A stretch of DNA of 64,000 bases, taken from contig JALHYA010000004.1 of NCBI GenBank assembly GCA_022868165.1, positions 16,457 through 80,456 on the forward strand, written 5' to 3'. Both the position numbers and the translations under genes were made by a program. The notes beneath the pieces were generated by a model. It worked only from the letters and a program-made list of their open reading frames with translations, ran no database searches and was not told where the DNA came from. Shown one piece after another: positions 29,751 to 45,782 of the stretch (position 1 is its first letter; every line of letters starts with the position of its first letter). Origin of the DNA: Patescibacteria group bacterium. Lineage in GTDB: Bacteria > Patescibacteriota > Microgenomatia > UBA8517.

Positions 29751-31076
29751 ATGAGAGAAAGAATGCCTGAACAGAAGTCTGAAATAGTTGAGGTTCCCCA
29801 TGAGGAATTTGTAGCGCGGGCTATTGTCGAAAACGCCAGAAACATGGCCCGTTTTTCAATTGGCCAAACCCCGCCCCCCAACTTTGATTTGGAGAGAGCA
29901 ACCGATTTGGAAGTTGCAAGACATCTTTCTGATGTACAAGTTGACGACAAAAGTCTAGCACAAGATATAAAAGAGGCTCTTGATAGAAATCTCGCAGACC
30001 CGGATGAAGCTTTTCAGGCAGCAAGCCTGACAGTAGCCAAAGCCATAGCTACAGAAGAAGTCGTATTGCCGAATGAAAGAGGATTCTTTAAAAGAGTCTC
30101 CGATAAAGTGGCAAAAGAGATGGGTCAGCTTATCGCCTCAAAATCCGGGAAGAGAGGTTTAGCTGTAGTTTCTGGCCTTTCGCTTGTCGCCACCGCCTGC
30201 GGTCAGGTTGCCCAAGGAGCAGAACCCTTAAGGCCAATAGACCTTGAAACTCCGACTACCGTGGCCACAGAGGTCAGACCTACCAGCACTCCTTTTTCAC
30301 CGGTTCCGCCAACCGAAATAGCCACCCCCACCCCCGAAGCGGTTAGGGATGAGTGGCAGGTATCGGCAGACGGGCTTATTCTTTACAATGAAGCAGAGTT
30401 ATATGACGGGATGTTTACTATAAACCCGGAACGAACAGGATATCTTTACGAACAACTGATGCGGAGTCTTTATCAAATTAACGTGGCGGGGGAAAATATG
30501 CCCTTCTTAAGACAATTTCCGACTCTCGAAGCTTTTATTCAATATGCCCATACTGGACAACCCATAAATAATATGTGGATTGCCATTGACCACCCGGGAA
30601 GCGGGGTAAGGTACCTGTATCAAGCAACTTGGGCTCCAGTTGAACCCGTAGACCTTTCCTCAACGGCCGTTGCTATTGTCCATCTAACCTATGATGATAT
30701 CGTGCATCCTACCACCCGGGACGAAAGGCCATTCTTTCCCGTCGAGGAGGGCGTGGGCGAGCTGGTAATAGAAAGGGTGGAAATAAACGGCGGTTTTGTC
30801 ATAAGGTTTACTTTCCGGCAAAGTCTTTATGATGACTCGGACTATGGCACTTTAGGGCTGTCAGATGATTATCCTTCGGAGCATAATTTGGCGGCAATAA
30901 CCCAGCTTATGAATGCTTGGTCTTGGGAAGTCGACCATATGAGGGATGATGAGGACGATATTCGTATAACTGGTGCGACCCCGCCCATATTCAACATAAC
31001 CAAAAGTTGGCCCAGTGAGGGGGAATTTAGAGAAATGGCAGAAGATGTTGAGAACTCTCCTTTTGTGCTTCGTTAA
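29751..31076 (+). CDS. Hypothetical single-pass membrane protein (cytoplasmic N-domain, extracellular C-domain)
   Basis: 441 aa ORF, TM 'GLAVVSGLSLVATAC'. Confidence 0.45.
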   Translation: MRERMPEQKSEIVEVPHEEFVARAIVENARNMARFSIGQTPPPNFDLERATDLEVARHLSDVQVDDKSLAQDIKEALDRNLADPDEAFQAASLTVAKAIATEEVVLPNERGFFKRVSDKVAKEMGQLIASKSGKRGLAVVSGLSLVATACGQVAQGAEPLRPIDLETPTTVATEVRPTSTPFSPVPPTEIATPTPEAVRDEWQVSADGLILYNEAELYDGMFTINPERTGYLYEQLMRSLYQINVAGENMPFLRQFPTLEAFIQYAHTGQPINNMWIAIDHPGSGVRYLYQATWAPVEPVDLSSTAVAIVHLTYDDIVHPTTRDERPFFPVEEGVGELVIERVEINGGFVIRFTFRQSLYDDSDYGTLGLSDDYPSEHNLAAITQLMNAWSWEVDHMRDDEDDIRITGATPPIFNITKSWPSEGEFREMAEDVENSPFVLR

Positions 31077-31122
31077 GTCACTTGAAAGATTTACCTTTTT
31101 TTGTAAAGATTAAGGTAGGTAT

Positions 31123-31641
31123 ATGAATAAGCTTCTTTATATTCTATTTGGTATAGTATTTGTCCTTGCTACTGTTTTAGGGGTGTTGTATGAAAGACGG
31201 GGAGGCTTGGTATTTTTGAGTAAAGACAAAATAAACTTCATAAGTAGTAAGAGCGGATTTGAGTGGGAAGTAAACGAAGATTTTGTGCGTTCGCTCGAAG
31301 AGTTGATTAGGACGAAAGAGGGCTCCGAATCGAAGAAAGTATTGGTAGTTCTCTCCTCCGAATTCAAACAAACACCCGAAGGTGGGGGATATGGAGAGCT
31401 TGAACCGTTTGTTTATGCAGAGTGGAGTTCTTCTGGAAATCGGGATACTTTAAATATCTACCTTGATGGCAATATTTGGAAGCAAATAGAAGAAAAGAAG
31501 AGAAATACCCCTGTGTCTTATCTGATATCTCAACAAATTCTGCAACACTTTGAGATGACCGATGAACCTTTAGAGAAGATTACTGAAGATATTTTTAACA
31601 ATGGACCAAAAATTTCTATTAAGGAAAGTTCAATTTTTTAA
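31123..31641 (+). CDS. Hypothetical N-terminally anchored protein
   Basis: 172 aa, N-terminal TM. Confidence 0.4.
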   Translation: MNKLLYILFGIVFVLATVLGVLYERRGGLVFLSKDKINFISSKSGFEWEVNEDFVRSLEELIRTKEGSESKKVLVVLSSEFKQTPEGGGYGELEPFVYAEWSSSGNRDTLNIYLDGNIWKQIEEKKRNTPVSYLISQQILQHFEMTDEPLEKITEDIFNNGPKISIKESSIF

Positions 31642-31648
31642 ATTTGCC

Positions 31649-33265
31649 ATGAGGAAACTAATATTGCTAATCTTTTCAGGTTTGATCTTTATTGCATTAT
31701 TTGTTGTCCCCAAAAACATTCAGGCTGCTTGTACTGGTAATACGAAATGCGCACCTTATAGTGGAGGCCATTGTTGGTGGGAGGAGAGTATGTACTATAC
31801 AGTAGGCTGTACCGCCTCGCCACAGTGCGAGGGGAATCCCTGTAATAAGGCCATTTGCCTAGTATCCGATACCTGTGCTTATGTCTGTAATCCTGGTGCA
31901 ACAACTTGTGGTCCTTGTTCCAAAACTTGTGGAGGAGGAATAAGTCTCTGTACGAATGGGTGTAGTTCGTGGAATGTGAATTGTAATACCCAGGCTTGTC
32001 CTCCGCCTGGCTGTCTTTGTGGTAACTGGGTGGACGGCGCCTGCGGTGTTGGTTTATGCGGCTCCAGCGAGCGGCAGCAAACAAGAACCTGTGTCCCTGC
32101 CGCCTGTGCCGCCGAAACCCAATGCGTTGTCGATCCAACTTGTACACTTCCTTCCAGTTGCACCGTTGATCTTCTACCGGCAACAGCCACAACATCAGTG
32201 GGCTCAAGCGTAACGCTTACGGCTTCGGTTACGGTAGGAAGTGGAACCGTTGACCAGGTAAATTTCACTTCTGCCAATACGGGGATTCTTACGGTAAGCC
32301 CGGCTTCCGACAGCACCGTGACGTATCAAACGCAGGCAACAGGGGTGGCCATTGGTTCAACTACCGTATCCACAGAGGTGATTATGGGCGGGGTTTCAAC
32401 TTGCGCTGATAGTGCTGGGTTAGGCGGAGGCACAGTTGTTAATGTGACTTCCGCAGGCCCTTGGTGGCAGGTGATTGATGCGGATATTACAACAAATGGA
32501 AGCATAACATCCAGCATTCCTGGAACTTGCGCCTTGCCGGGATGTAATCCCTTGTTTGATTTGGTCGGCCCCGGAGGCTATCCTGGTGTGCCTGCTTACG
32601 GGGGAACGGCAAGTTTTAGTACAGGCACGGTTTCTACTATTGGATGGCTGGCAAACACTTTAAGTCTAACTTCCAATAACCGGCAATATGCATATGCCTG
32701 GTTTAAGAGACTGATTCCTTCGGATGTAACTATGAATGAGATAACTTCACCTTCCATTGACGGCACCGAGCTTTCTTCAGGGGGAACGGCCAGTGGGGGA
32801 TACTATTATTACCGTTATGACGGCTCAAGCGGGCTGGATTTAACCATAAACACCGATGCTTCGTTGGGCACAAGAAAGGTAATTTTGCTGGTGGACGGGG
32901 CAGATTTGAACCTAAACGCAAGGATTAACTTCACAAAGGGACAGGGATTCTTTATGGCTTTTGTCGGCAAAACCCTGCTGGGGGCCAAGGGTAACATCAA
33001 TGTTTCTTCAACGCTTGGCGGAGGAGTCACACCCCATCTTGAAGGATTGTATGAAGCCGATGGCGCTTTCCATTCAGGAGCAGGAACAACACAGCTTTAT
33101 ATTCGCGGGTCTGTTGCGGCATATGGGGGAATGAATTTGGAACGGAATTTGACCGATAATTCCGCCACCCCGGCCGAAGTCTTTGAATACGCGCCCGATT
33201 TAATCTTCACCTATCCCTATAAACTTAGGGAAAGAAGGATCTTCTGGCAAGAAGTAGCCCCATAG
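31649..33265 (+). CDS. Cys-rich secreted adhesin-like protein (TSP1-like Cys-knot repeats, Ig-like domain, beta-helix-like C-terminus)
   Basis: Signal anchor 'MRKLILLIFSGLIFIALFVVPKNIQA'; 'CGPCSKTCGGGISLCTNGCSSW' resembles thrombospondin type-1 repeat cores; 'LTASVTVGSGTVDQVNFTSANTGILTVSP' Big-2-like. Its last 119 bp are duplicated at 39509-39627. Confidence 0.55.
   Translation: MRKLILLIFSGLIFIALFVVPKNIQAACTGNTKCAPYSGGHCWWEESMYYTVGCTASPQCEGNPCNKAICLVSDTCAYVCNPGATTCGPCSKTCGGGISLCTNGCSSWNVNCNTQACPPPGCLCGNWVDGACGVGLCGSSERQQTRTCVPAACAAETQCVVDPTCTLPSSCTVDLLPATATTSVGSSVTLTASVTVGSGTVDQVNFTSANTGILTVSPASDSTVTYQTQATGVAIGSTTVSTEVIMGGVSTCADSAGLGGGTVVNVTSAGPWWQVIDADITTNGSITSSIPGTCALPGCNPLFDLVGPGGYPGVPAYGGTASFSTGTVSTIGWLANTLSLTSNNRQYAYAWFKRLIPSDVTMNEITSPSIDGTELSSGGTASGGYYYYRYDGSSGLDLTINTDASLGTRKVILLVDGADLNLNARINFTKGQGFFMAFVGKTLLGAKGNINVSSTLGGGVTPHLEGLYEADGAFHSGAGTTQLYIRGSVAAYGGMNLERNLTDNSATPAEVFEYAPDLIFTYPYKLRERRIFWQEVAP
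33147..33265 (+). repeat. 119-bp direct repeat, copy 1 (3' end of the adhesin-like CDS incl. stop) = putative attL
   Basis: 100% identical to 39509-39627. Confidence 0.85.
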
Positions 33266-33306
33266 TCTCAAATCCCGAAGTTCTGAAAGTTGCAGGCGAC
33301 ACAAAA

Positions 33307-33336
33307 TTGGACGATAGGCGAGTTGGGCCTTATAAT
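33307..33336 (+). promoter_or_regulatory. Sigma70-like promoter: TTGGAC (33307-33312) - 18 bp - TATAAT (33331-33336) driving the greA-like/adk operon
   Basis: Good match to the -35/-10 consensus with 18-bp spacer, 20 nt upstream of ATG 33357. Confidence 0.5.
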
Positions 33337-33356
33337 AGTTTCTCAATAGTATATAT

Positions 33357-33923
33357 ATGGTAGACATCGACAGACTCAGGACATTGCCTGGAGAGGAATT
33401 GGTAAGGCTCGCTTTAAAAGGTGAGGTTATTCTAGCCAGCGAAGAAGGCATTGGAATTCTTGATGGCCAAATCGACCGAACAAAAAATGAAGCAGCTTCG
33501 CTTAAGCTAAGGCTAGGAGAAGTCGCTCGCCAGGACCCAGATTTGCCGGAAAATATAGAATTTAAGGAAATCAAAACCAAGTTACAGTTTGAGATCCCCA
33601 GAAAATTAGACGACTTGGGAAGGAAAAAAGCAAAAACAATAGTCTTTCAAGAAAACCAGGATGGAGCTATCCGTTTTGGAACTCTATTTGAAGCTCGGAT
33701 AGAGTATCCCACTGAGACTACCTCTGGGGTATTTGTTTTTTTGGGACCCATAGAAGCAGCCGCCGGAAAAATTGAGGCCAAACCTGAGGCCCAAGTTATT
33801 TCTTACCTGTCTGTAGTCGGAAAGGCTTTATGGGGTTATGATCCAAATAGTGGTAAACCGGTTCAGTTTGAGACGCCAGCTGGCAAGGCTACTTGTATTG
33901 TTAAAAAAGTTTTCAAGCCGTAA
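33357..33923 (+). CDS. GreA/GreB-family transcript cleavage factor homolog with divergent N-terminal coiled coil
   Basis: C-terminal FKBP-like domain: 'ISYLSVVGKALWGYDPNSGKPVQFETPAGKATCIVKKV' vs GreA '[36 protein letters not shown]'. Confidence 0.55.
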   Translation: MVDIDRLRTLPGEELVRLALKGEVILASEEGIGILDGQIDRTKNEAASLKLRLGEVARQDPDLPENIEFKEIKTKLQFEIPRKLDDLGRKKAKTIVFQENQDGAIRFGTLFEARIEYPTETTSGVFVFLGPIEAAAGKIEAKPEAQVISYLSVVGKALWGYDPNSGKPVQFETPAGKATCIVKKVFKP

Positions 33924-34585
33924 TGATCGAGTCCAAAGAAAGTTCATATCTTTTGTATGGTCCTCCCGCAAGTGGTAAAACTGCACTTGCCCTCGAATTA
34001 AGCAGGAGGATTGCCAAGGAGTACATTTCAGTTGGCGAGCTTACTCGTAGGGAAATCGAATTAGGAACACCTAGGGGTAAAAGACTTCAGAGGTGTTTAG
34101 ACGAAGTTACCGAATATCCAATAGAGTTAATTACAGGATTGGTAGAGGAGAGCATTGTTGCTTGTATGTCGGCGGGCGAGAATTTCATTTTAGATGGTTT
34201 TCCTAAATATGCCCAAGAGGCTCGAGCGTTCGTAAAACTATTAGAAAAACACAGGATTCTCCTAGATGCAGCAATTGTAATTGACCTACCCGTTGAAGGA
34301 GCTTTTGTGCGAGTTCTTAACAGAAGAATTTGTGTTTCCTGTCTAGCGCAAACAGAAGATGGCGGACAAATATGTCCGCAATGTGGAGATGCCCTTACTA
34401 TAAGAGACGACGATATCCCACCCATATTTAAAAGAAGGTATAATGACTATAAGGACTCAATAGACGAAACACTTAGAATTATCGGACCATTTTGTAAGAG
34501 GATAATCCACATACAGGGCTCACAAAGCAAAGAAGATTTATTTAATTTGCTGTATATAAAATTATCCCTTTCCATGCCCGAGTAG
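33923..34585 (+). CDS. adk: Adenylate kinase-like NMP kinase with Zn-binding LID
   Basis: P-loop 'GPPASGKT', 'DGFPK', LID 'CVSCLAQTEDGGQICPQCG...RDDD'. Confidence 0.6.
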   Translation: MIESKESSYLLYGPPASGKTALALELSRRIAKEYISVGELTRREIELGTPRGKRLQRCLDEVTEYPIELITGLVEESIVACMSAGENFILDGFPKYAQEARAFVKLLEKHRILLDAAIVIDLPVEGAFVRVLNRRICVSCLAQTEDGGQICPQCGDALTIRDDDIPPIFKRRYNDYKDSIDETLRIIGPFCKRIIHIQGSQSKEDLFNLLYIKLSLSMPE

Positions 34586-34651
34586 CTCAGCAGAGAGAGC
34601 GGTTGCGTTGTAAGCAACAGGTCGATGGTTCAAGTCCATCCTCGGGCTCCA
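34576..34651 (+). tRNA. tRNA-Thr (anticodon TGT), CCA encoded
   Basis: Cloverleaf: acceptor gcccgag/ctcgggc, anticodon stem gttgc/gcaac with loop gtTGTaa, T-arm gatgg-ttcaagt-ccatc; 76 nt. Confidence 0.85.
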
Positions 34652-34658
34652 ACAGTTT

Positions 34659-35576
34659 ATGAAAAATAAGGCCATTTTTACTTGGAAAGAGATCGTAGAA
34701 CTTTTAACTGGAAATGGTCACGCGGTTTCTTGTGCAGACATGAGTTCTCTGATTACATACTCCAGACAGCGTGGAATAGGCACGGCTATTTCTTATCAAA
34801 AAACCTCGTACTCAGAAGAAGGCTTGAAAAATCTTAAACGACTTGTTCGGTGGTGGATTTATCTAGACGATTTCACTATCCCCGAGTGGAGAAACGCTAT
34901 TATTACAAAAAAGATTCAAAAAATAGTTGTCGGCTCGTTAAAAAATAACTTACCTCTGACTTTGTACGCAGTATTCTGTCCTTCCTACAAAAAAGGGGTT
35001 GGAGTATCTGGATATACTGGGAAATTAGGAATGCATACCAAAAGGTATATTCAAAAAATGTCAGAATTCGTTCTTTCCACGGAAGATGCGGGCTTGAAAG
35101 TAAAAGGGACAGCCTTTTTTAGCGACCTTCTTTTAGAAAATTACAAAAGACTTGTCGGAACGAACTATAAAAAGGATCTCGCGTCCAACTTTCGAGAATT
35201 CAAAAAAGATATTAAAAAAAACAGTAAAGGAAAAATAAAAAGTGCTCTTTTGTCATCTATCATGGCCCTTAAGCGTGATGTCGGGGAGAAAGGGATAAAG
35301 ACTGGCCCTTTGGGGATATCAGGTGAGCTTTTTAATACGGTCTTTAAGAGGAATAGAGTTTTTTATACAAACCAGCTTGGCTGGTCGGAGCCCATGGTAA
35401 AAGAAAGAACGGAGGTCTTGGCCAGAAGTTACGCAAAACTTGGGGAATACTTTAGGAAGAAATATCCCGAGGGAATTATGTTTTGGGTAGAGAGTGCTTA
35501 CGAGAGGGGTGCCATGTATAGCGGAAACAATCAGCAGGACCCTATTCCAATAATTTATCCCAAAAAAGATGAATGA
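34659..35576 (+). CDS. Hypothetical protein (305 aa), first gene of a tightly packed 5-gene operon
   Basis: ORF with 8-bp overlap to the next gene; no recognisable motif. Confidence 0.45.
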   Translation: MKNKAIFTWKEIVELLTGNGHAVSCADMSSLITYSRQRGIGTAISYQKTSYSEEGLKNLKRLVRWWIYLDDFTIPEWRNAIITKKIQKIVVGSLKNNLPLTLYAVFCPSYKKGVGVSGYTGKLGMHTKRYIQKMSEFVLSTEDAGLKVKGTAFFSDLLLENYKRLVGTNYKKDLASNFREFKKDIKKNSKGKIKSALLSSIMALKRDVGEKGIKTGPLGISGELFNTVFKRNRVFYTNQLGWSEPMVKERTEVLARSYAKLGEYFRKKYPEGIMFWVESAYERGAMYSGNNQQDPIPIIYPKKDE

Positions 35577-36546
35577 CAATTCCAAAATAGAGGGGCTTCT
35601 AAGCAACTTGGAACTTGAGTGGTTTAGGCTGGGCCGAGATTTCCACCTCGATTTTGAATTTCTTACAAATCTTTACAGCAAGGAGAAAAAACATATTTTC
35701 GAACATAGCCCCTATCATGTACTCTCCTATTTACGATTCAAAAACCAGCTCTACGGTATTTCAGGCAGATTTGGTTCTCTAGTTTTGGTTTCGAGAAAAG
35801 ATGACAAATTTCTATTTACCCCTCGCATTGACGACTTTAAATCATTCGAGCTTTTTATCAAAGCAATTAAAAGGAGCCTCGGGGTTACCAAAATTGAAAT
35901 TCGGAACGTCAGTGAGCAATGGTTACAATCATTCCTGGTGAATGTATCAAATGTTGCGAAAAGGGGGATGTCTGTGAAAGAGCGCTCAAGGGAGGAGGCT
36001 ATCTATGATGTCGACCTGTTGTGCGAACTCCGCGGAAAAGATTTTGCAGGGATTAGACAATCCAGAAATAAGTTGTTAAACAGTGGAAGTATTCAGTTTA
36101 AGCCCTTTACTAAAATTTCCTTAAAGGACGGTGTAGGGGTCTTAAATAAATGGCAGAAAGTCCAAGGTTGGAAGTATGTTAAAGAGAGAATAGAGAAAGA
36201 GAAATATGTACTTGCGAGATTTTTTGATTTTTCTCGGTTAACAAAGAATGTATTGTGTGGGGTTGGCTATTATAAGGAAGTGCCTTTAAGTATTCTGGTT
36301 ATGCACCTTGTTCCAAACGGGGAAAAAAGCGGAACAATCTACCTACTTAAAGGAATAAACAGGCCTTCTGACGGGGGCACCCATGGAATATCAGATGCTA
36401 CTTACTGTTACGCTTTCCTTAGAGCTAAGGAGATGGGTATAAAATACCTCAATGATGGAGAATTGGGAACAGAAGAGGGTACAAGGAGACACAAACTCAA
36501 TTTTAAGCCGATAGAATTTCTCAAATCCTACGACGTTTTGCTCTAA
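35569..36546 (+). CDS. Hypothetical protein (325 aa); weak resemblance to GNAT-fold/aminoacyl-transferase-like (DUF2156-type) proteins
   Basis: ORF in operon; similarity judged by eye only. Confidence 0.4.
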   Translation: MNDNSKIEGLLSNLELEWFRLGRDFHLDFEFLTNLYSKEKKHIFEHSPYHVLSYLRFKNQLYGISGRFGSLVLVSRKDDKFLFTPRIDDFKSFELFIKAIKRSLGVTKIEIRNVSEQWLQSFLVNVSNVAKRGMSVKERSREEAIYDVDLLCELRGKDFAGIRQSRNKLLNSGSIQFKPFTKISLKDGVGVLNKWQKVQGWKYVKERIEKEKYVLARFFDFSRLTKNVLCGVGYYKEVPLSILVMHLVPNGEKSGTIYLLKGINRPSDGGTHGISDATYCYAFLRAKEMGIKYLNDGELGTEEGTRRHKLNFKPIEFLKSYDVLL

Positions 36547-36548
36547 AT

Positions 36549-37688
36549 ATGAAACAGCTAAGAACGAATGAGTTTTATAACGAGATCGAATTTGAAAAAA
36601 TTTTCCCCCCTCAACTTTATGAAAATTTCAACTCTGAATTGCCAGCACCACTAAATGGACGGACAACAATTTTCACCTTATATGGCAGAAATGCTCTGTA
36701 CCTTGGTGCGAGAGAGATGTTAAATTTGACTAAAAGAAACATTGTGCTAGTTCCGGCCTACTCGTGTGGGGATGAAATAGCTCCATTTGTAGCTTCCGGT
36801 TGCAGAATTAAAGCTTACCGTGTACACCCTGAAACCTTGCAGGTAGATAAAAAGGATATTGAGCAGAAATTGGATCAGAATGTTTCTGCGGTTTTGATAA
36901 CACACTATTTTGGTTTTCCTCAAAAGGAAATAGAAATTATAAAAAAGATATGTGGAGAAAGGGGAGTCGTACTTATTGAAGACTGTGCCCACGCTTTTGC
37001 GGGTGGATTTAAAAACATCCCCCTAGGTGCTTTTGGGGACTTTTCCATTTTTAGTTTAAGAAAGTTTTTGCCTATTCCGCATGGGGGAGCTCTGGTCATA
37101 AATAACACGAAGATAAACAGACCAAATCCCCTCCCGCCACCGGCTACGGCAGTAAATCTTGACCTTTTTCTTTATTCGGGTTACCAGGCTGGTATTTTTA
37201 CGCGAGGAATAAACATTCAGGACACACTCGATATGGTAGGTGTCAAACAAAAAGATTTACATGGCCCACGGCTAAAAGAGTTTGGTGGTTATAATTTAGG
37301 TCTTTCCAATGTTGCAAAAGTTCTAATCGCATTTATTGCAAAGCAGAAATTGTGGACAAAGAGAAGATCAAACTTTCTTTATTATTTGGACTTTTTCGAA
37401 AAGAATTCGCATAAATCGGTGCAACCGCTGTTTGAATTCCTTGAGAAAGGGGTAGTACCTTTATTTTTTCCTGTTCTAGTAAACGACTCTGAAGAGATAT
37501 ATAAAAGATTGAGAGACAAGGGCCTTTTTGCTGGACAACCATTCTGGTCTGATTCCCATACCTATTTCAACTGGGCTGATTTTTCGCCCTTAAACGAGCT
37601 GAAGAAGAAGGTTATGGTTTTGCCAGTGAATCATAGAGTCCATTATCGAGACTTAAAGCGTTTCCTTGAAGTTTCAGACTATAGGTAG
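36549..37688 (+). CDS. DegT/DnrJ/EryC1/StrS-family PLP-dependent aminotransferase-like protein
   Basis: 'VPAYSCGDEIAPFVASGCRIKAYRV...VSAVLITHYFGFPQKEIEIIKKICGERGVVLIEDCAHAFAG' matches the DegT-family core. Confidence 0.6.
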   Translation: MKQLRTNEFYNEIEFEKIFPPQLYENFNSELPAPLNGRTTIFTLYGRNALYLGAREMLNLTKRNIVLVPAYSCGDEIAPFVASGCRIKAYRVHPETLQVDKKDIEQKLDQNVSAVLITHYFGFPQKEIEIIKKICGERGVVLIEDCAHAFAGGFKNIPLGAFGDFSIFSLRKFLPIPHGGALVINNTKINRPNPLPPPATAVNLDLFLYSGYQAGIFTRGINIQDTLDMVGVKQKDLHGPRLKEFGGYNLGLSNVAKVLIAFIAKQKLWTKRRSNFLYYLDFFEKNSHKSVQPLFEFLEKGVVPLFFPVLVNDSEEIYKRLRDKGLFAGQPFWSDSHTYFNWADFSPLNELKKKVMVLPVNHRVHYRDLKRFLEVSDYR

Positions 37689-37700
37689 TATAATTCTTTT

Positions 37701-38978
37701 ATGTGTAGAGACATGTATATACTGTTTGGGCCTCCTGGAAGTGGTAAAACTGTCCAGGCGAGATTTTTGTCCCAAAGGTTGAAACTGGACGGTATTTCAT
37801 GGGGTGACATCTACTGGGGTACAAAGTTTAACAAGAAGTACAAGGGACAAATTGCTGTAATAAAGAAGGAGGCTATCTCTGACAGAACTCGCTCGAAGGA
37901 GATAGCAAAGATAATTGACAAGGAAATTGGCAGCCTTACTTTACGAAATAAAGGCGGGAAGCGGGGGTTGGTTTTGGACGGATTTCCTAGAAGATTGGGA
38001 GAGGCTAGACTCCTTCTTAAAATATGCAAGAAAAGGGGATACAGAATAAAATCCTTGATTCGCATAAATCCATCTTTAGATTTTTCAGCGAACCGCTTCA
38101 AAAAAAGGCTTTTTTGTGAAAAATGCCGCGCTTATTACGATGAACTCAATCTACCCAAGAAGAAGGGTCGTTGTGATTTAGACGGCGGAAGGCTATCTCA
38201 TATGGATATTTCAAAGGAGAGTGTGGCGAAAGAATTTAACACCTATTTAGACGAATGTCTCGAAACATTTGAATATCTCAAAGATTATGCAGACATTTTT
38301 TTTGATGTAACTGGCGACGATGAAGATATGGTTATTTCTTCAAATATTCTTATTAAAATAAAGAATAGAATTCGAGAAAATTATAGTCTCTTTTCAAGAA
38401 AGCCCTCTACATCTATTATGACTAAGTACGGTAGTTTTAAGCTTGTACCCTATCAATCACGACTAGATTATTCCTACCACTTAGCGCTTGTAAAGGGAAA
38501 CGTTAGAGATGGAAAACGAGTACTGGTTAGGGTTCATTCCTCTTGCATAACCGGAGATATTTTTGGGTCCTATATGTGTGATTGCGGAGAACAACTAGAG
38601 GAATCCATGAAAAGAATCGAGCACGAAAAGAGGGGAGTTTTAATATATTTATTTCAGGAAGGCAGGGGCATAAACATGATTAACAAAATTCAAGCTTACA
38701 GGTTACAACGCAATGGGTATGACACAGTGGATGCTAATGAAGCCATCGGTTTTCCAGCCGAAATGAGGGACTACCGGTTAGTGAAGGAGGTTTTGGAGGA
38801 TTTGGGGGTAAAAACAATTAGATTGTTGTCCAATAGTCCCGAGAAGATCAATAAACTTACAGACCAGGGAGTTATTATAGAAGAAATGGTTGGAGTCGAA
38901 GTAGAGCCTCGAAAGTGGAACAGAGGATACTTGCTTACAAAAAAGGAGAAAATGGGTCATAAGTTGGATGTTTCATAA
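37701..38978 (+). CDS. Fusion protein: N-terminal adenylate-kinase-like NMP kinase + C-terminal GTP cyclohydrolase II (RibA)
   Basis: N: 'FGPPGSGKT', 'DGFPRR', Cys LID 'CEKCRAYYDEL...RCDLDGG'. C: 'VRVHSSCITGDIFGSYMCDCGEQLEES...LFQEGRGINMINKIQAYRLQRNGYDTVDANEAIGFPAEMRDY...IRLLSNSPEKINKLTDQGV' aligns with RibA incl. Zn ligands C-x10-CxC and EGRG. Confidence 0.7.
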   Translation: MCRDMYILFGPPGSGKTVQARFLSQRLKLDGISWGDIYWGTKFNKKYKGQIAVIKKEAISDRTRSKEIAKIIDKEIGSLTLRNKGGKRGLVLDGFPRRLGEARLLLKICKKRGYRIKSLIRINPSLDFSANRFKKRLFCEKCRAYYDELNLPKKKGRCDLDGGRLSHMDISKESVAKEFNTYLDECLETFEYLKDYADIFFDVTGDDEDMVISSNILIKIKNRIRENYSLFSRKPSTSIMTKYGSFKLVPYQSRLDYSYHLALVKGNVRDGKRVLVRVHSSCITGDIFGSYMCDCGEQLEESMKRIEHEKRGVLIYLFQEGRGINMINKIQAYRLQRNGYDTVDANEAIGFPAEMRDYRLVKEVLEDLGVKTIRLLSNSPEKINKLTDQGVIIEEMVGVEVEPRKWNRGYLLTKKEKMGHKLDVS

Positions 38979-39507
38979 TAATATGAAAGTTGTTTTAGGG
39001 TCCACAAGTGATGATAAAAAAAGAATTGTAAAGGCAGCCCTGAAATCTCTTGGTGTAAAGGCTGTGATTGAGGGGGTTACTGTCTCTTCGGGGATAAGTG
39101 AGCAGCCTTTAGATAAAAAGACCACGATTTGCGGTGCAGTGAATCGGGCGGTAGAAGCCTTGAAAATTAAAACCGATTCGGACCTCGCTGTGGGGTTAGA
39201 GGGGGGCTTGGATCGAGTAAAAGATTCAGGCTTTTTTCTTGTGTGTGCGGCTGCTATATATGACAAAAGCGGAGGAATCTATCTGGGAACGAGCAGGAAA
39301 ATAAAACTTCCCAAAGAAGTATCTGAAAAAATAGAGGAGGGGGCATTTTTCGGAACGGTAATTAGAGAATATAGAAAGAAAGTAAGAAAAAATAAGGCAT
39401 TGTTTAATCTTTCAGACCAACTTATAACAAGAAATGTCCCTTTTTCAGAGGCAATACGAAACGCCTATAAATCTTTCAAAGAAGGTACACTCTATCAAAA
39501 GTTTTAG
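38968..39507 (+). CDS. YjjX-family non-canonical purine NTP phosphatase (ITPase/XTPase, DUF84)
   Basis: 'MKVVLGSTSDDKKRIVKAALKSLG....VSSGISEQPLDKKTTICGAVNRA' parallels YjjX '..[23 protein letters not shown]'; start may be Met at 38983. Confidence 0.55.
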   Translation: MFHNNMKVVLGSTSDDKKRIVKAALKSLGVKAVIEGVTVSSGISEQPLDKKTTICGAVNRAVEALKIKTDSDLAVGLEGGLDRVKDSGFFLVCAAAIYDKSGGIYLGTSRKIKLPKEVSEKIEEGAFFGTVIREYRKKVRKNKALFNLSDQLITRNVPFSEAIRNAYKSFKEGTLYQKF

Positions 39508-39508
39508 G

Positions 39509-39627
39509 ATTTGACCGATAATTCCGCCACCCCGGCCGAAGTCTTTGAATACGCGCCCGATTTAATCTTCACCTATCCCTATAAACTTAGGGAAAGAAGG
39601 ATCTTCTGGCAAGAAGTAGCCCCATAG
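39509..39627 (+). pseudogene. 119-bp direct repeat, copy 2: orphan 3' fragment (last 39 codons + stop) of the adhesin-like gene 31649-33265 = putative attR
   Basis: 100% identical to 33147-33265; an in-frame TAG two codons upstream, no start codon. Confidence 0.85.
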
Positions 39628-39629
39628 GT

Positions 39630-40835
39630 TTAGGCTGAATCGACAATCGTCATCTCCGCGTTAGCTGAAATCTTTTCCAAGGAAGCGGGTTTGTTGTTGA
39701 AAAAGGCATATGAGGCGATATATGCGGCGTTGTCCGTGCAGAGATTTGCGGGAGGAAATCGTAAATCAACTTTTAACTTTTCACTTTTCACTTTTAACTC
39801 AAATACTTGTCGAAGACGAGTATTAGCCGATACTCCTCCAGCTAAAAGAAGGGATTTGGGCTTGAATTTCTTTACTGCGTCCAGAGTCTTTTTAACTAAA
39901 ACGTCAACGATTGCCTCCTGTATTTCTGCTGCCAGCCTGGAAGTTAGAGGTGGGAAGCTTGAAGCTGGATGTAGATGTTGGAGTTTAGATTTATTCCAAC
40001 TTCTAACTTCTTTGTCCAGCTTCTCACCTCTATTTTCCAATTTCTCTGTTTCCCTAAGCACCGCTGTCTTAAGGCCCGAAAAACTGAAGTCAAAATTATC
40101 CTCATCAATCATCGGTCTGGGAAGTAGATTTAGTTGGAAGTGGGAGGCAGGAGGCTGGAAGTTCGCTGCGGCGGCGGCGATGGCTGGTCCTCCCGGGTAG
40201 GGAAGTCCCAAAAGACGGGCGGACTTGTCAAAAGCCTCGCCGGCCGCATCATCCCTTGTTCCTCCAATCCACTCTATTTTTCCCCGCCCGCCAGCGCTAC
40301 GCGCAAGCGTTGCGGGCGCGGCGTGGCCTTTCATCAGAACCAAATCCGTATGTCCTCCGGAAACAACCAGTGCCAGTGCCGGAAATTCCGGCCGACTATC
40401 CGTTAGCCAGTTGGCGTATATGTGTGCCACAAGATGGTTAACCGGAATAACAGGCTTTTTCCATAAATAGGAAAGGGTTTTGGCCGTTTCTACTCCGACC
40501 AAAAGGGAACCAATAAGGCCCGGCCCGACGGTTACGGCAATGGCGTCTATATTGGAAGATAGAAGATGGAGGTTTGAAGCTAGATTTTGATGTTGGATAT
40601 TAGATTTTTCCTCCAACTTCGAACTTCTAACTTCAGAGACAGTACTTAGTGCTTCGGAGATAACAGGAAGAACGCTGAGAACCTGCTGGCGTGCAGCCTG
40701 CTCCGGGATTACGCCGCCAAATTTGGCCTGCATTTCCGCGCTCGATGCAACAACATTGGAAAGAATTTTTGTTCCGTCTTCGACAACTGCCGCTGCAGTT
40801 TCATCACATGAGGTCTCTATCCCCAGAATTTTCAT
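39630..40835 (-). CDS. tsaD: tRNA N6-adenosine threonylcarbamoyltransferase TsaD carrying two in-frame low-complexity insertions derived from palindromic mini-repeats
   Basis: 'MKILGIETSCDETAAAVV', 'VTVGPGLIGSLLVG', 'LVVSGGHTDL', 'DFSFSGLKTAV' TsaD/Kae1 blocks; 401 aa vs ~340 typical; extra segments coincide with repeats at 39935-40030 and 40553-40636. Confidence 0.8.
   Translation of the reverse strand: MKILGIETSCDETAAAVVEDGTKILSNVVASSAEMQAKFGGVIPEQAARQQVLSVLPVISEALSTVSEVRSSKLEEKSNIQHQNLASNLHLLSSNIDAIAVTVGPGLIGSLLVGVETAKTLSYLWKKPVIPVNHLVAHIYANWLTDSRPEFPALALVVSGGHTDLVLMKGHAAPATLARSAGGRGKIEWIGGTRDDAAGEAFDKSARLLGLPYPGGPAIAAAAANFQPPASHFQLNLLPRPMIDEDNFDFSFSGLKTAVLRETEKLENRGEKLDKEVRSWNKSKLQHLHPASSFPPLTSRLAAEIQEAIVDVLVKKTLDAVKKFKPKSLLLAGGVSANTRLRQVFELKVKSEKLKVDLRFPPANLCTDNAAYIASYAFFNNKPASLEKISANAEMTIVDSA
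39935..40030. repeat. Palindromic mini-repeat (copy D) inserted in frame in tsaD
   Basis: ggaagttagaggtgggaagcttgaagctggat...tccaacttctaacttctttgtccagcttctcacctc; arms gaggtgggaagcttgaagctgga / tccagcttctcacctc. Confidence 0.7.
40553..40636. repeat. Palindromic mini-repeat (copy E) inserted in frame in tsaD
   Basis: gaagatagaagatggaggtttgaagctagattttgatgttggatattagatttttcctccaacttcgaacttctaacttc. Confidence 0.7.
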
Positions 40836-40884
40836 TTCCCAATTATACTATTGAATCTGCCTTCCCGGTGCTAAAATTTAGTCC

Positions 40885-41409
40885 ATGAAAGAGGGGCACA
40901 GAGACGACGACTGTATAAACTGGCTTCTGGGAGATTCTTCCGTCTTTCCGGAAAAGAGGGTTTTGAGTGACAATTCCCGACCTCCCTCAAAGGAAGAGTT
41001 AACAGGCCGTGACGCATTTATAAAGGTTGTTTTTGACAAGATTGATAATCTAGTATTTCGACTATCGCGATATAAACATGAACACGTTCGAGGGTATTCG
41101 ACCATAGAAGGGGAATTTTTTATAAACCCAGGTGTCGCCAAAAAAACTTTGAGTTTTTTAGGTTTAGATCAAGAATCTTCCAGGGCCGGAGAGATAACGG
41201 TTGGTGTTTCTGTTTTAGACATAAAAGGTAAACAGGATGGAGCAAAAATATCGGTGAGAGCTCGGGACAAAGAAGCAATTTTTGCCTTTCAGAGAGATAC
41301 AACCGGTTCCAAAATTACTTTTAGCTGGTTTCCCTCCGGCGATGATGCTTTAAGGGGAGACTTCACTCAAAAAGCCCTCGAGGTAGTGGAGGAGATAGAG
41401 AATTTGTAA
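40885..41409 (+). CDS. Hypothetical protein (174 aa)
   Basis: ORF divergent from tsaD. Confidence 0.4.
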   Translation: MKEGHRDDDCINWLLGDSSVFPEKRVLSDNSRPPSKEELTGRDAFIKVVFDKIDNLVFRLSRYKHEHVRGYSTIEGEFFINPGVAKKTLSFLGLDQESSRAGEITVGVSVLDIKGKQDGAKISVRARDKEAIFAFQRDTTGSKITFSWFPSGDDALRGDFTQKALEVVEEIENL

Positions 41410-41416
41410 AAATAAA

Positions 41417-43159
41417 TCAGTTTGCTGGGCCTGTCCCTCGAAGGTAGACAGCCTGCCAGGGTCGAAAATTTGAAACAAAAGTTTTCTGATAGATTGTCTC
41501 TCCGCCCCTTTCGACGGAATAGTTGAAAGTTACGGTTGCTCCCCAGGCGGTAAAATCAACCTGTTTTACCGTTCCTGTGGGCAGAGTCGGGTCGTCCTGA
41601 TAAAGATCCGGCGGTGGGGGAGATTGATTGGTGATAATCGGCTTGGTTACGGTTGCTACCCTACTGTCTTTGGTTCCGTAGAGCTCGAAAACAAGATTCA
41701 TAGTATTTAAGTCGACCGAAGTTTGAATGAGGATATATCCGGGAGTATCGTTTTTGAATTTCAAATCCGGCGAAGGAGAGTAAACCGTTGCATCAAGGCC
41801 GGGAGGAGAGTCCTGTTCGTAGTAGCCGACGCGATAGGCATGTGCGGCTCTCTCGGCAATTGGGAGTCCGGCATTTAATATTGCCCTAAAAAGGGTTGTC
41901 GAAACCTGGCAAACCCCACCGCCGTCTCCAAGGACGGTTTTTCCGTCTTTTATTATGTAGGCCTGTTTGTAGCCGGTGTAGGGGGAAACGTCTCCCAGAA
42001 CGTCATTGAAGGAAAAAGTATCTCCGGGTTTTACCAAGACTCCGTTGAATCTTGAGGAAGCGAGAACAATATTGTGAATCCTTCCCGGGATAGAGTGGAA
42101 GAAAAGCGAGGAGCCCCGGCCGATTAGCTCCTTTATTCCCAAATTGTTTATGTCTCCTGTTTTAATTTCCGGGGGAGTTGTAACAACGGGAATATCAACG
42201 GATGCCGTTTTTGCATCAGTTGATTCGAGAGTCTGGAGATTTCCGACGACTCGAGTTTCAAGAGCCGAAATATCTACTTTTGCGCCGTCTTTTGAAGGCT
42301 TAAACTCCTGAACCTTTCCGCCCTGAAAGACAAACACAGAATCTTGGGGTTCCCGGTTTACGGATTTGGCAATAGTCTCTTCTTCGGCCTCAATTGCACT
42401 TGTCGAATATTTTCCTTGGGGATTTAAAAACTTGAACAACTCTTCGGAAGAGAAAGAAAACCTTTGAAATTCAAAGCTTAGGTTCAGGGTTTTGCCCACA
42501 AGATTTTGGGCTCTTTCTTTAAATTTATTGGTCTGTTCGGTGTCAAGCGAAGGATCTACTTTGACAATCGGAACATTTATCGGAGAGGTTTTGGCAAAAG
42601 CCAGGTTTTGGCCTATTTCCACGCGAAGAAGCTGGTTATCCAAATTTGTCCCTTTCTTTCCGTTATCTATGACTACATTTCCTCCCACAAGTTTCGCCGT
42701 AGGATATATGGGGTCAACGGTTACTTGGCCCGCGAGAACCGAAATTTGGCTGTTTAATTTGTCCTCGTTGAGATTTATTCTTGAGCCAAGATTTATATGC
42801 CTAAAAAAGCCAAGTGAGCGGCAGTAAAAGTCGGCAAGAATATTTCCGGTTCTGTCCAAGTTGTAAGCCGCCCGGGCGGACTCATTAAAGTTATAAGAAA
42901 AATCAAAAGAGCCGGTTTCGATGTCAAAGTTTTGTCCGTTTGCGCTCAAGGTTAGCTTTGCCGGAGGGACCAATGATTTTTCCAAAGTACTTTGGGCTTC
43001 CTCGGGAGTTTTGCCTCCCAGATAAATTCCGGCGACGGATATGCCCGGAAAAATTCTTCCGGCAAATGCGATGTTATAAGCAGCAAAAAGGACAAGGACC
43101 GAGGTAAAAGAAATTAGAATTTTTTGCAGGTTTTTTTGTTTTTTTCGGGAAAACTTCAT
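41417..43159 (-). CDS. VanW-domain protein (YoaR-like), N-terminally membrane anchored
   Basis: 'GDGGGVCQVSTTLFRAILNAGLPIAERAAHAYRVGYY' VanW signature; start set at MKFSRKK.. (43159) ahead of the TM. Confidence 0.65.
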   Translation of the reverse strand: MKFSRKKQKNLQKILISFTSVLVLFAAYNIAFAGRIFPGISVAGIYLGGKTPEEAQSTLEKSLVPPAKLTLSANGQNFDIETGSFDFSYNFNESARAAYNLDRTGNILADFYCRSLGFFRHINLGSRINLNEDKLNSQISVLAGQVTVDPIYPTAKLVGGNVVIDNGKKGTNLDNQLLRVEIGQNLAFAKTSPINVPIVKVDPSLDTEQTNKFKERAQNLVGKTLNLSFEFQRFSFSSEELFKFLNPQGKYSTSAIEAEEETIAKSVNREPQDSVFVFQGGKVQEFKPSKDGAKVDISALETRVVGNLQTLESTDAKTASVDIPVVTTPPEIKTGDINNLGIKELIGRGSSLFFHSIPGRIHNIVLASSRFNGVLVKPGDTFSFNDVLGDVSPYTGYKQAYIIKDGKTVLGDGGGVCQVSTTLFRAILNAGLPIAERAAHAYRVGYYEQDSPPGLDATVYSPSPDLKFKNDTPGYILIQTSVDLNTMNLVFELYGTKDSRVATVTKPIITNQSPPPPDLYQDDPTLPTGTVKQVDFTAWGATVTFNYSVERGGETIYQKTFVSNFRPWQAVYLRGTGPAN

Positions 43160-43195
43160 GGCTAGTAAATATGATAACATTAAGTTTGAAATTAT

Positions 43196-44578: not shown

Positions 44579-45384
44579 AGCTTGAAGCCGGCGAGGTTGC
44601 CTCGATTTATTATCACGACATTTTTGATTATCCTCTAACCCCTTTTGATTTAATCCGCTGGCGGGCGGGGGAAAAGGTAAGACCTAAAGATTTGAATTTT
44701 GAGATTACCCAAGAGAGGGGATACCTTTTTGTCAAAGGCCGCAAGGGACTGATTTTCAAAAGAACGATTCGCGAGAAAAACTTCCAGAGGAAAAAGGAAA
44801 TTGCCCAAAGCGCGGCAAGACTTCTTGCCAAACTTCCGACAATAAAAGTAATCGGACTTACGGGTTCGTTGGCAATGCAAAATGCACCGGATTCGTCCGA
44901 TATAGATTTTTTGATAATCACACGGAAGGGAACTCTTTGGACAACAAGGCTTTTGTCGTTTTTGCTTTTGAAATTGGCAGGTATTCCCACCAGAAGATTT
45001 GGAGACAAAAAGGAAAAGGACAAGATTTGTTTAAATTTGTGGCTCGACGAAACCGCACTTAACTGGCCAAAAACGCAAAGAAACGCTTATACAGCCCACG
45101 AAATCGCACAAATAATCCCGGTGGCGGATAAAGACAAGGTATTCGAAAAATTCCTGTGGCTGAACCGCTGGATAGAGAAGTATTGGCCCAACGCGATTAA
45201 GATAAGAAAAGCTATATTCCGTTCTGGAAAAAAGTCAGGCCCGAGCTTTATCGAGTTTATCGCCAGAAATTTTCAGTTCTGGCACATGAGAGGTAAGATT
45301 ACCCGGGAAAGAGTTTCCAAGAAAAAAGCTCTTTTTCATCCTCAGGATTGGGGAGAAATAGTTAAAACGCGATTTTACACTTGA
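44575..45384 (+). CDS. Polymerase-beta-superfamily nucleotidyltransferase-domain protein
   Basis: 'IGLTGSLAMQNAPDSSDIDFLII' (GS...DxD NTase motif). Confidence 0.5.
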   Translation: MKLEAGEVASIYYHDIFDYPLTPFDLIRWRAGEKVRPKDLNFEITQERGYLFVKGRKGLIFKRTIREKNFQRKKEIAQSAARLLAKLPTIKVIGLTGSLAMQNAPDSSDIDFLIITRKGTLWTTRLLSFLLLKLAGIPTRRFGDKKEKDKICLNLWLDETALNWPKTQRNAYTAHEIAQIIPVADKDKVFEKFLWLNRWIEKYWPNAIKIRKAIFRSGKKSGPSFIEFIARNFQFWHMRGKITRERVSKKKALFHPQDWGEIVKTRFYT

Positions 45385-45440: not shown

Positions 45441-45450
45441 TTTCTAGTAT

Positions 45451-45759: not shown

Positions 45760-45782
45760 AACGTGGTGAGCGAAGTCGAACC

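Follow-up and report, generated by a model that had tools for sequence, protein, structure and literature searches.

The window, by which we mean the whole 64,000-nt stretch of Patescibacteria DNA that was analysed, carries two copies of a 119-nt sequence in direct orientation, and these bracket an insert of 6,243 bp (33266-39508), referred to here as the cassette. The left copy (R1) forms the 3' end of a gene that we call ADH, while the right copy (R2) lies beside the convergent gene tsaD. The features of the locus are collected in Table 1.

Table 1. Features of the repeat-bracketed locus, with positions counted from the first nucleotide of the window.
Feature	Position	Strand	Remark
Target gene ADH, 554-aa secreted Cys-rich surface protein	31601-33265	+	Weak Ig-like (Big_2) match
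Repeat copy 1 (R1)	33147-33265	+	Last 39 codons and TAG of the target gene; functional gene end
Cassette leader, 91 nt	33266-33356	+	17-nt motif and promoter-like site
GreA/GreB-like factor, 188 aa	33357-33923	+	First gene of the operon; weak GreA C-terminal match
Adenylate-kinase-family protein, 220 aa	33923-34585	+	Pfam and NCBIfam matches
tRNA-Thr, anticodon UGU	34576-34651	+	Overlaps the end of the adk-family gene
Conserved 305-aa protein	34659-35576	+	No family match
LPG_synthase_C-like protein, 325 aa	35569-36546	+	
DegT/DnrJ/EryC1-type aminotransferase, 379 aa	36549-37688	+	
Fusion of an adenylate-kinase domain with GTP cyclohydrolase II, 425 aa	37701-38978	+	NCBI protein MCJ7805300.1
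NTPase I-T / YjjX-like inosine/xanthosine triphosphatase, 179 aa	38968-39507	+	Last gene of the operon
Repeat copy 2 (R2)	39509-39627	+	Orphan, start-less copy of the target gene's end, beside tsaD
tsaD	39630-40835	-	Convergent right-hand anchor of the site

The two copies (33147-33265 and 39509-39627) are identical at 119 of 119 positions, as a preliminary description of this DNA had claimed. At three or fewer mismatches the repeat matches the window at these two places only (0 matches expected from 100 shuffles), no other direct repeat in the 64 kb exceeds 50 nt, and similarity drops sharply at all four borders. The terminus of R1 is the TAG of the 554-aa ADH reading frame. R2 begins 1 nt past the TAG of the YjjX-like gene (39505-39507) and stops 2 nt short of the tsaD stop codon (39630-39632, minus strand), filling the intergenic gap between these genes completely. 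It had been described as an orphan with an in-frame stop upstream; R2 is indeed in frame with YjjX, and the stop codon is that of YjjX itself. Proteins of the ADH family share a C-terminus of the form ...RDL..PAE.FEYAPD...FP....R..W(K/Q)EVAP*, and among 72 homologues from Patescibacteria the end reads ...EVAP* or ...EIAP* in 69 and ...EVSP* in one, with tails ending otherwise in two (P0061 and P0072). Judged by these comparisons, R1 is the native, family-conserved C-terminus (...WQEVAP*) and R2 is the displaced original end, so that the conserved ends across the 72 homologues bear out the roles previously assigned to the two copies.

From end to end, the cassette is one intact operon of eight parts, and its non-coding margins measure 91 nt on the left and 1 nt on the right. 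Its leader contains a 17-nt motif, CTCAAATCCCGAAGTTC, at 33267-33283 and a promoter-like site, TGGACG-17-TATAAT, at 33308-33336. The tRNA-Thr reported earlier was confirmed (UGU, 34576-34651), while the label of a nucleotide-metabolism operon fits in part, as the cassette also encodes the GreA-like factor, the DegT-type aminotransferase, the LPG_synthase_C-like protein and the 305-aa protein. The same operon was found elsewhere. At locus L145 it is present as a whole and in the same order, with 43-51% amino acid identity, between a PBP gene and TyrRS/RecG, and there, too, it is headed by the GreA-like gene; at loci L141-L144 it occurs without that gene (36-54% amino acid identity). The tRNA-Thr holds the same operon position in L141 (UGU) and L145 (CGU), and in both the 305-aa protein has a syntenic counterpart with 46-51% identity. 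An intact operon that fills the 6,243 bp and keeps its order in core-gene neighbourhoods of distant Patescibacteria does not agree with the degraded island suggested earlier and, since it occupies the insert from one end to the other, it leaves no room for a decayed integrase. The insert is a complete operon and not a mobile element, and its cargo is not element-like. A transposon or insertion sequence was considered and rejected, as there are no inverted repeats and no transposase, and the duplication measures 119 nt against the usual 2-15 bp.

Several properties set the cassette apart from its surroundings. For the GreA-like factor just five homologues were found, the best non-self one at 52% identity, and the nearest non-self homologues of the Adk::RibA fusion and the GreA-like factor are 52-54% identical, in a database where backbone genes have relatives at 85-100%. 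Within the sampling of this database, which is not one of complete genomes, close cassette homologues were not found for the two related lineages, B and C, described below. The comparison of GC content that had been proposed gave 40.0% for the cassette against 43.6%, the lowest value of any 6.2-kb stretch and in the lowest 0.3% of sliding windows; its tetranucleotide distance is the largest in the window, approximately 3 sd over the mean. We infer a gain and a foreign origin: most likely, horizontal transfer brought the operon here recently from a distant lineage of Patescibacteria.

The empty site that had been predicted for related genomes was looked for and found in lineage C (L005 and L006), where the stop codon of the ADH homologue lies 1 nt from that of tsaD and synteny is kept on both sides, with DUF4012, L25 and class I aaRS genes before ADH on the left and tsaD, VanW, SBP and Cpn60 genes on the right. 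In these relatives it is the gene end that adjoins tsaD, a place which R2 occupies in the window. Gene identities support the grouping (A,B),C, in which A is the lineage of the window, and the cassette-free state is therefore found in the outgroup. In approximately 40 more distant relatives the aaRS gene follows tsaD directly or within 0.7-1.6 kb, and none of them has a cassette gene within 10 kb of tsaD. The opposite polarity would make the repeat-flanked operon ancestral, with the "empty" relatives having lost it by repeat recombination, and recombination between 119-nt direct repeats would yield exactly the junction of lineage C. This is nevertheless very improbable, given that no relative, near or far, has a cassette gene within that distance of tsaD, that no close homologue of a cassette protein occurs in a database holding lineages B and C, that the repeats are perfect, that the composition of the cassette deviates from the rest of the window, and that lineage B carries other cargo and an orphan of another length.

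In lineage B (L004 and L009) the cargo at the site is 0.67 kb long and consists of a DUF5674 gene and an 86-aa ORF. The orphan measures 27-30 nt and is imperfect, with 3 mismatches in 30 nt against B's own gene end, and it aligns continuously with R2 and tsaD. As far as these sequences tell, the site is a strain-variable hotspot holding different cargo in sister lineages. The 17-nt motif also stands directly past the gene's stop codon in lineage B, and the score of its A-B alignment was reached by just 3 of 2000 shuffles. Its presence in unrelated cargos hints either at a shared left junction, left by an older event with subsequent turnover of cargo, or at a recognised site, and both would render two independent illegitimate insertions less likely. 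One further arrangement, the fourth at this site, was observed in L008, a co-occurring strain from the metagenome of L004, in which an extra 1 kb with HD-domain and NUDIX genes lies between the orphan and tsaD.

Between lineages A, B and C the repeat sequence has diverged by 16-17%, and the two copies of A differ at 0 of 119 positions, which places the duplication much later than the A-B split. An older origin would require that one insertion in the common ancestor of A and B made the orphan, that the cargo was later swapped by recombination in the flanks, and that the copies in A owe their perfect identity to gene conversion rather than to youth. In agreement with this, the orphans of A and B lie in the same place beside tsaD in a continuous alignment, the motif past the stop codon is common to both lineages, the orphan of B has diverged from B's gene end, and A-B identity around the site is mosaic (93-100% in the flanks, 65-84% in the 3' third of ADH and in tsaD), a pattern typical of repeated recombination. 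Against it, the absence of any difference within A beside 16-17% between lineages demands a conversion that covered the orphan precisely and spared the flanks, and the two orphan lengths call for at least one further event anyway. We regard such an ancestral duplication as distinctly unlikely.

The arrangement was compared with an independent assembly of the reads (Logan, k=31, run SRR19116065). Three of its contigs match the window letter for letter (30387-33176, 33236-39538 and 39598-47815), and each breaks off exactly k-1 = 30 nt into a repeat, which means that both junctions of both copies are present in the reads. As this assembly breaks exactly at all four repeat boundaries, the contig-collapse artefact considered in the preliminary description was set aside. 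In the k=31 graph, two paths enter one node and two leave it, which fits X-R-C-R-Y or X-R-Y plus a circle alike. If the latter applied, the chromosome would be empty, the cassette with one repeat would be a 6,362-bp circle or belong to a co-occurring strain, and the assembler would have joined it to the chromosome at the shared 119 nt, a length found among the default k values of MEGAHIT. The graph, which cannot separate the two states, and the single sampling of the window's lineage would be compatible with such mis-threading, but it is the least probable of the readings discussed here. Reads join both ends of the cassette to the repeat, so the gene end flanks the cassette on both sides, and it is the reads, not the assembler's k, that set the repeat boundaries. 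Among the cassette genes there is none for replication, and they include a tRNA and one of the adk family. For lineage B, structures of the same type are present in three independent JGI assemblies. In addition, the MAG contig (locus-tag prefix MUP46; longest contig on record for its proteins 210,112 bp) presumably crosses the region, because the 64-kb window runs through it uninterrupted.

With moderate confidence, we favour a recent insertion of the horizontally acquired operon through host recombination or repair, with duplication of the target and without an element-encoded integrase. The earlier proposal, that an insertion left a displaced duplicate of the 3' end of its target gene, agrees with the structure of the locus and with the empty site in lineage C. 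ADH would originally have ended 1-2 nt from the convergent tsaD, and the operon would have entered its 3' end, doubling the last 119 nt in such a way that R1 preserved the conserved C-terminus and R2 was left over beside tsaD. With two convergent genes and no spare DNA between them, an insertion at this place would survive only if the end of the gene was regenerated. We infer a recombination route and a role of host machinery, for which two courses may be envisaged: in one, a circularised DNA that bears the operon together with the identical 119 nt would recombine with the chromosomal copy by a single, Campbell-type crossover; in the other, the operon would be inserted by repair or by a replication template switch that re-copied 119 nt of the target.

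A Campbell-type crossover is expected to leave the insert between two identical direct copies, which is what is seen here over 119 nt. In E. coli conjugation experiments, single crossovers with circularised DNA produced duplications of the locus of 109-950 bp flanking the insert (PMC3240628), and these resemble the present case in that a homologous segment is directly duplicated around the insert, with a size range that spans 119 nt. They differ in that the homology was plasmid-built there, whereas here the source circle was not found. No circle or donor with both the 119 nt and the operon was found, and the nearest copies of the operon are approximately 50% identical and stand in other contexts. 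Such a crossover needs a circle that already bears the recipient's 119 nt together with the foreign operon, which counts against this route.

At the right junction, where the insert ends in ...TTTTAGG before ATTTGACC and the original sequence in ...AACGGA before ATTTGACC, there is no microhomology, and a template switch is therefore not positively supported. Homology-facilitated illegitimate recombination, a process of natural transformation, usually deletes recipient DNA and leaves 3-10 bp of microhomology at the joint (PMC3240628), unlike the present locus, where recipient DNA is duplicated and the right joint is without microhomology (A vs G before the repeat). The likeness lies in that one-sided homology to the target gene could anchor DNA running into foreign cargo, and a variable illegitimate joint would account for the differing orphan lengths. 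As the two copies are identical, donor and recipient would in that case have been near-identical strains.

Site-specific integration, in which the 119-nt copies would be attL and attR and the recombinase would be encoded elsewhere, was weighed against host recombination or repair. Variants of it would resemble a cis-mobilisable element or exploit a host Xer-type recombinase, and the excised cassette, a 6,362-bp circle, would then re-enter at the 3' end of the gene. Direct-repeat-bounded segments without their own recombinase occur as cis-mobilisable elements derived from ICEs. Integrase-borne genomic islands and prophages, which enter the 3' end of a tRNA or protein gene and bring a replacement end with them, likewise have inserts bracketed by direct repeats from the 3' end of a target gene that stays intact, an empty site in relatives, and an insert composition deviating from that of the host. 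The second, unrelated cargo in lineage B with the 17-nt motif by the left repeat, the possibility that this motif is an arm-type binding site, and the assembly graph, which fits a circular form, also agree with site-specific integration.

However, integrase-borne elements encode a tyrosine or serine recombinase, usually beside one att site, whereas here the preliminary description had already noted the lack of an integrase, and none of the seven cassette proteins matched a recombinase in Pfam or NCBIfam. A Pfam scan of 50 ORFs from the window was negative for recombinase and transposase domains, by either repeat and beyond, and the suggested mobilisation in trans is unsupported. Further differences from integrase-borne elements are that the cargo is one intact conserved operon instead of element genes, and that the repeat length varies by lineage: with a fixed crossover core the length should be the same everywhere, and 119 nt in A against 27-30 nt in B is a poor fit to one such site. 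Neither significant structure nor dyad symmetry is present in the repeat (fold z-scores -1.0 and +0.6), the cassette ends have no terminal inverted repeats, and the cassette shows no phage or plasmid similarity beyond the tRNA. The operon is of a housekeeping type and lies elsewhere in core-gene contexts without such flanking repeats, and an attP equal to attB over 119 nt is hard to reconcile with cargo that is approximately 50% identical to its nearest relatives. We consider site-specific integration unlikely on these grounds; a trans-acting recombinase or a second copy of the operon may lie outside the 64 kb seen.

Islands of this general kind that do excise have been documented. The H47 genomic island of E. 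coli is a 13-kb, recombinase-less segment flanked by long, imperfect direct repeats, it carries a microcin system, and its excision and circular form were shown experimentally (PMC5426353). The cassette is like H47 in being bounded by direct repeats, in having no recombinase of its own and in being potentially excised by host functions. Unlike H47, it has repeats that duplicate a coding 3' end perfectly, and it carries a housekeeping-type operon with a tRNA. Under the preferred reading of a recent insertion through host recombination or repair, the two perfect repeats would now permit precise loss of the operon by homologous recombination. One point that counts against this reading is that the insert ends 1 nt past its last stop codon, which is unusually tidy for an illegitimate event.

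The repeats that flank the cassette, R1 and R2, are identical at 119 of 119 positions, as the preliminary description had correctly located and described, and they fit an insertion in which the end of a surface-protein gene was duplicated. R1 comprises the final 39 codons and the TAG of this 554-aa ORF. R2 fills the whole gap between the YjjX-like gene and the convergent tsaD, starting 1 nt past the TAG of the former and stopping 2 nt short of the tsaD stop. The 554-aa protein is secreted and Cys-rich with a weak Ig-like match, and it has 72 homologues, all from Patescibacteria where the source names them. Sixty-nine of them end in EVAP or EIAP and one in EVSP, all with a tail of the type ...RDL..PAE.FEYAPD...FP....R..W(K/Q)EVAP, and two (P0061 and P0072) have other endings. 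This conserved tail indicates that R1 encodes the native gene end and that R2 is a start-less duplicate. The pair gives the only window matches at up to three mismatches (0 in 100 shuffles) and the only direct repeat longer than 50 nt in 64 kb; with no third copy, a dispersed repeat family is rejected, at least on the local scale. Folding of the 119 nt with flanking sequence scored no better than shuffles, and Rfam matched only the tRNA in or near the repeat, so readings as a structured RNA, a terminator, or a small mobile repeat were dropped. R2 is in frame with YjjX, with only the YjjX TAG between (...EGTLYQKF, stop, DLTDNSATPAEV...WQEVAP, stop), a match expected by chance in one case in three; read-through would hypothetically join YjjX to the conserved 39-aa tail of the surface protein.

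Coordinates of the features discussed (in the window unless another contig is named)
Feature	Coordinates	Remark
Surface-protein gene	31601-33265	plus strand
R1	33147-33265	
Cassette	33266-39508	seven proteins: GreA/GreB-like; adenylate-kinase-family; 305-aa conserved unknown; LPG_synthase_C-like; DegT-type aminotransferase; adenylate-kinase domain::GTP cyclohydrolase II fusion (Adk::RibA); YjjX-type NTPase
Promoter-like site TGGACG-17-TATAAT	33308-33336	5' of first cassette gene
tRNA-Thr(UGU)		overlaps adk end
Operon, Adk to YjjX	33923-39507	
Operon, Adk to YjjX	6350-11820	in L141
Operon, Adk to YjjX	10001-16090	in L145
Shared frame of YjjX end and R2	39505-39627	
R2	39509-39627	
tsaD	39630-40835	minus strand
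Logan contig L147	30387-33176	exact substring
Logan contig L002	33236-39538	exact substring
Logan contig L001	39598-47815	exact substring, reverse complement
Divergent segments of surface-protein gene	31900-32100; 32400-32650	
174-aa ORF	40885-41409	beside tsaD
Hairpin-forming elements in tsaD	39938-40031; 40553-40634	94 nt; 82 nt
Intergenic element of about 105 nt	17885-17990; 47740-47845	
Site with HD-domain and NUDIX genes	11065-12160	in L008 (Ga0315288_10003916)
23S-rRNA-intervening-sequence protein gene, type-IV-secretion-like cluster, dnaN/dnaA	865-1230, 8326-14163, 14734-17538	given jointly

A contig-collapse artefact, one of the origins first proposed for this arrangement, is not borne out. 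An independent Logan assembly (k=31) of run SRR19116065, whose contigs were recovered via exact-protein look-ups, reproduces the repeat boundaries: three of its contigs are exact substrings of the window, and each stops exactly 30 nt (k-1) within a repeat boundary. The reads thus hold both contexts on each side of the repeat, and the length of 119 nt is a property of the data, not of the assembler's k. The default k values of MEGAHIT include 119; an origin of the repeat length from this value was rejected as a coincidence, since the k=31 assembly gives identical boundaries. On the k=31 graph alone, the order gene-R-cassette-R-tsaD is indistinguishable from gene-R-tsaD plus a 6,362-bp circle, which is the ground for considering a mis-threaded circle. 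We rank that explanation below insertion; for the proteins of the deposited MAG, the longest recorded contig has 210,112 bp, and the 64-kb window crosses the region uninterrupted. Under either graph solution, the gene end bounds the cassette on both sides. A literature search on the accession SRR19116065 found no paper.

An empty site, which the preliminary description had proposed to look for, was found in lineage C, a related, cassette-free lineage (L006 and the 47-kb contig L005), where the gene stop lies 1 nt from the tsaD stop. Synteny is kept both on the left (DUF4012, L25, a class I aaRS, then the surface-protein gene) and on the right (tsaD, VanW, a solute-binding protein, and Cpn10/60). 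In the sister lineage B (L003, L004, and L009), whose surface protein is 87% identical to that of the window, the gene stop is followed by a cargo different from that of lineage A, the lineage of the window: 0.67 kb with a DUF5674 protein and an 86-aa ORF. A gene-end orphan of 27-30 nt with three mismatches, 2 nt, and the tsaD stop come next, and this orphan with tsaD aligns continuously with R2 and tsaD of the window at 90%. The locus L008, from the same metagenome as L004, has an extra 1 kb with HD-domain and NUDIX genes between orphan and tsaD, and the gene/tsaD junction is thus polymorphic even inside one sample. The L008 orphan ends in CCCTGA, as against CCATAG in L004 (Ga0315288_10043560), and its NUDIX gene overlaps the tsaD stop. 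In about 40 more distant relatives, an aaRS follows tsaD directly or after 0.7-1.6 kb of varied genes, including Sua5/TsaC-like and MetK-like ones (judged by eye from translations); none has cassette genes within 10 kb of tsaD. Given such differing arrangements, this family has a variable spot downstream of tsaD.

Every gene tested groups as (A,B),C by pairwise identity. Between lineages the repeat region diverges by 16-17%, and between the two copies of lineage A by 0; barring gene conversion that keeps the copies equal, the duplication is therefore far more recent than the split of A from B. An old duplication homogenised in this way would also leave two equal copies; we rank it lower than a recent insertion. 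Nucleotide identity between A and B is a mosaic, with flanks at 93-100% and the 3' third of the gene and tsaD at 65-84%, which argues for repeated recombination around the site.

The cassette holds one complete conserved operon, as its order recurs in distant loci. In L145, at 43-51% aa identity, the cassette gene set has the identical order and a tRNA-Thr at the equivalent position; its neighbours there are a penicillin-binding-protein gene on one side and TyrRS/RecG on the other, with ThrRS, IF3, L20, and PheRS upstream. The loci L141-L144 have the operon minus the GreA-like gene, at 36-54% aa identity. In the window, the cassette is cut 91 nt before the first gene and 1 nt after the last. 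The reported lack of an integrase was confirmed by a domain scan, which found no recombinase or transposase domain in the cassette or in the 50 window ORFs scanned; the cassette has no terminal inverted repeats, and the tRNA was its sole match in phage and plasmid collections. A complete operon with these properties does not bear out the suggestion of a degraded island. Well over 80 near-full-length homologues of the kinase::cyclohydrolase fusion were found. Adk, tRNA-Thr, the two unknowns, DegT, Adk::RibA, and YjjX form an operon that is widely conserved in Patescibacteria and can be acquired whole; its product, at a guess, is derived from a guanine nucleotide.

As for its origin, Adk::RibA and the GreA-like protein have their nearest non-self homologues at 52-54% identity, as against 85-100% for relatives of backbone genes in the same database. 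In the compositional comparison suggested at the outset, the cassette has a GC content of 40.0% vs 43.6%, the lowest of any 6.2-kb stretch in the window, and no stretch lies further from the window average in tetranucleotide usage (a distance about 3 sd above the mean). Distant homologues together with deviant composition point to a gain from a distant Patescibacteria lineage. Loss in the relatives instead of gain in lineage A is ranked lower on the same evidence. For lineages B and C, the lack of the operon is deduced from the sequences sampled in the database and not from complete genomes. A contig search with Adk::RibA gave, among the matches listed, only RibA domains of unrelated phyla (47-56% identity). 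Nothing in the window corresponds to the operon flanks of L145 and L141, and an empty donor site was looked for inside the window and not found.

The architecture matches that of an island in the 3' end of a gene. The cassette differs from an integrase-borne island in the defining property, an element-encoded recombinase, and the fixed crossover core expected of site-specific islands is not seen here. It works most like the H47 island, which is recombinase-less and repeat-flanked (PMC5426353), and Campbell-type insertion duplications (PMC3240628). Unusual points are that the cargo comprises an entire conserved operon including a tRNA and that the setting is a zero-spacer convergent pair in a CPR genome.

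In the insertion, the recipient would have had 119 nt at the end of its own gene duplicated. Where convergent genes lie 1-2 nt apart, a tolerated insertion must rebuild the gene end, so selection alone accounts for the duplications in survivors. Two putative recombinase-independent routes would each yield exactly this product. In the first, a single crossover would join the chromosomal 119 nt to a putative circle carrying the same 119 nt and the cargo; in E. coli, single crossovers gave 109-950-bp duplications of the homologous locus (PMC3240628). In the second, a template switch during repair or replication would return 119 nt behind its departure point. The site lies about 16-22 kb right of dnaA/dnaN, with tsaD on the strand opposite to the genes at its left; if the origin adjoins dnaA, tsaD transcription would run head-on to replication. 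No microhomology was found at the right joint.

A 17-nt motif, CTCAAATC[C/T]C[G/A]AAGTTC, follows the gene stop in both A and B despite their different cargos, with an alignment score reached by 3 of 2000 shuffles. It cuts across both routes and suggests, from sequence comparison, that A and B either share a left junction older than a later turnover of cargo or carry a recognised sequence. The latter would suit a site-specific recombinase acting in trans, close to the mobilisation in trans first envisaged. This is ranked below the two routes. At their right ends, the cargos of A and B have no significant similarity (393 of 2000 shuffles). A broader and, as a whole, improbable reading is that cargo is exchanged at the gene/tsaD junction independently of a recombinase. 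Each incoming segment in turn would rebuild or supply the conserved gene end and leave nested orphans (119 nt in A, 27-30 nt in B, orphan plus further cargo in L008), and the shared motif would be a recognised entry point. Even a complete housekeeping operon with a tRNA would then move among Patescibacteria, in the form of an excisable circle of 6.4 kb that is acquired and integrated again via the 119-nt homology.

Insertion with a duplicated gene end, by contrast, is borne out by R1/R2 and the lineage C site, and it offers a clean, datable case of whole-operon gain by a symbiotic, reduced-genome bacterium, for which public data yielded the states before and after as well as a sister state that has other cargo. 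Direct repeats derived from a gene 3' end are by themselves no proof of an integrase-driven element, and where convergent genes abut without a spacer, an insertion can survive only if it duplicates the gene end. The site is a strain-variable hotspot beside a rapidly evolving surface protein. If the repeats mediate excision, loss and regain of the operon could be reversible within populations.

Several other features of the window were recorded. The surface-protein gene is itself a mosaic relative to lineage B, 97-100% identical in places, whereas its Cys-rich N-terminal part and its middle include indel-rich segments (39-49%) and segments at 70%; in the tblastn comparison with lineage C, the alignment covered the C-terminal 326 aa alone (74%). 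Neither the 554-aa nor the 441-aa protein was on record in exact look-ups, probably owing to truncated or differently started gene calls. The 174-aa ORF, absent from lineages B and C, encodes a protein 90% identical in L011 and 86% in L055, loci whose other genes are mostly about 60-85% identical to those of the window; this looks like a separate local gene exchange.

The tsaD product has 401 aa, vs 340-355 aa in relatives. The gene holds two related hairpin-forming elements, with best 55-nt stretches 80-84% identical to each other and no further copies in the window. Both leave the frame open, adding EVRSSKLEEKSNIQHQNLASNLHLLSSN and RGEKLDKEVRSWNKSKLQHLHPASSFPPLTSR, and have the look of palindromic insertions that entered an essential gene in frame. 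The intergenic element of about 105 nt, without a match in Rfam, has a core 92-95% identical between copies and three short hairpins, e.g., CCCCGCTC-AAAGA-GCGGGG. The two copies are placed differently, one separating dnaA from the operon that comes next and the other after a 103-aa ORF following groEL; the k=31 contig L001 also ends within this element. At its left edge, the window has the 23S-rRNA-intervening-sequence protein gene, and the type-IV-secretion-like cluster (a PrgI-like protein and a VirB4/TraG-like ATPase) adjoins dnaN and dnaA.
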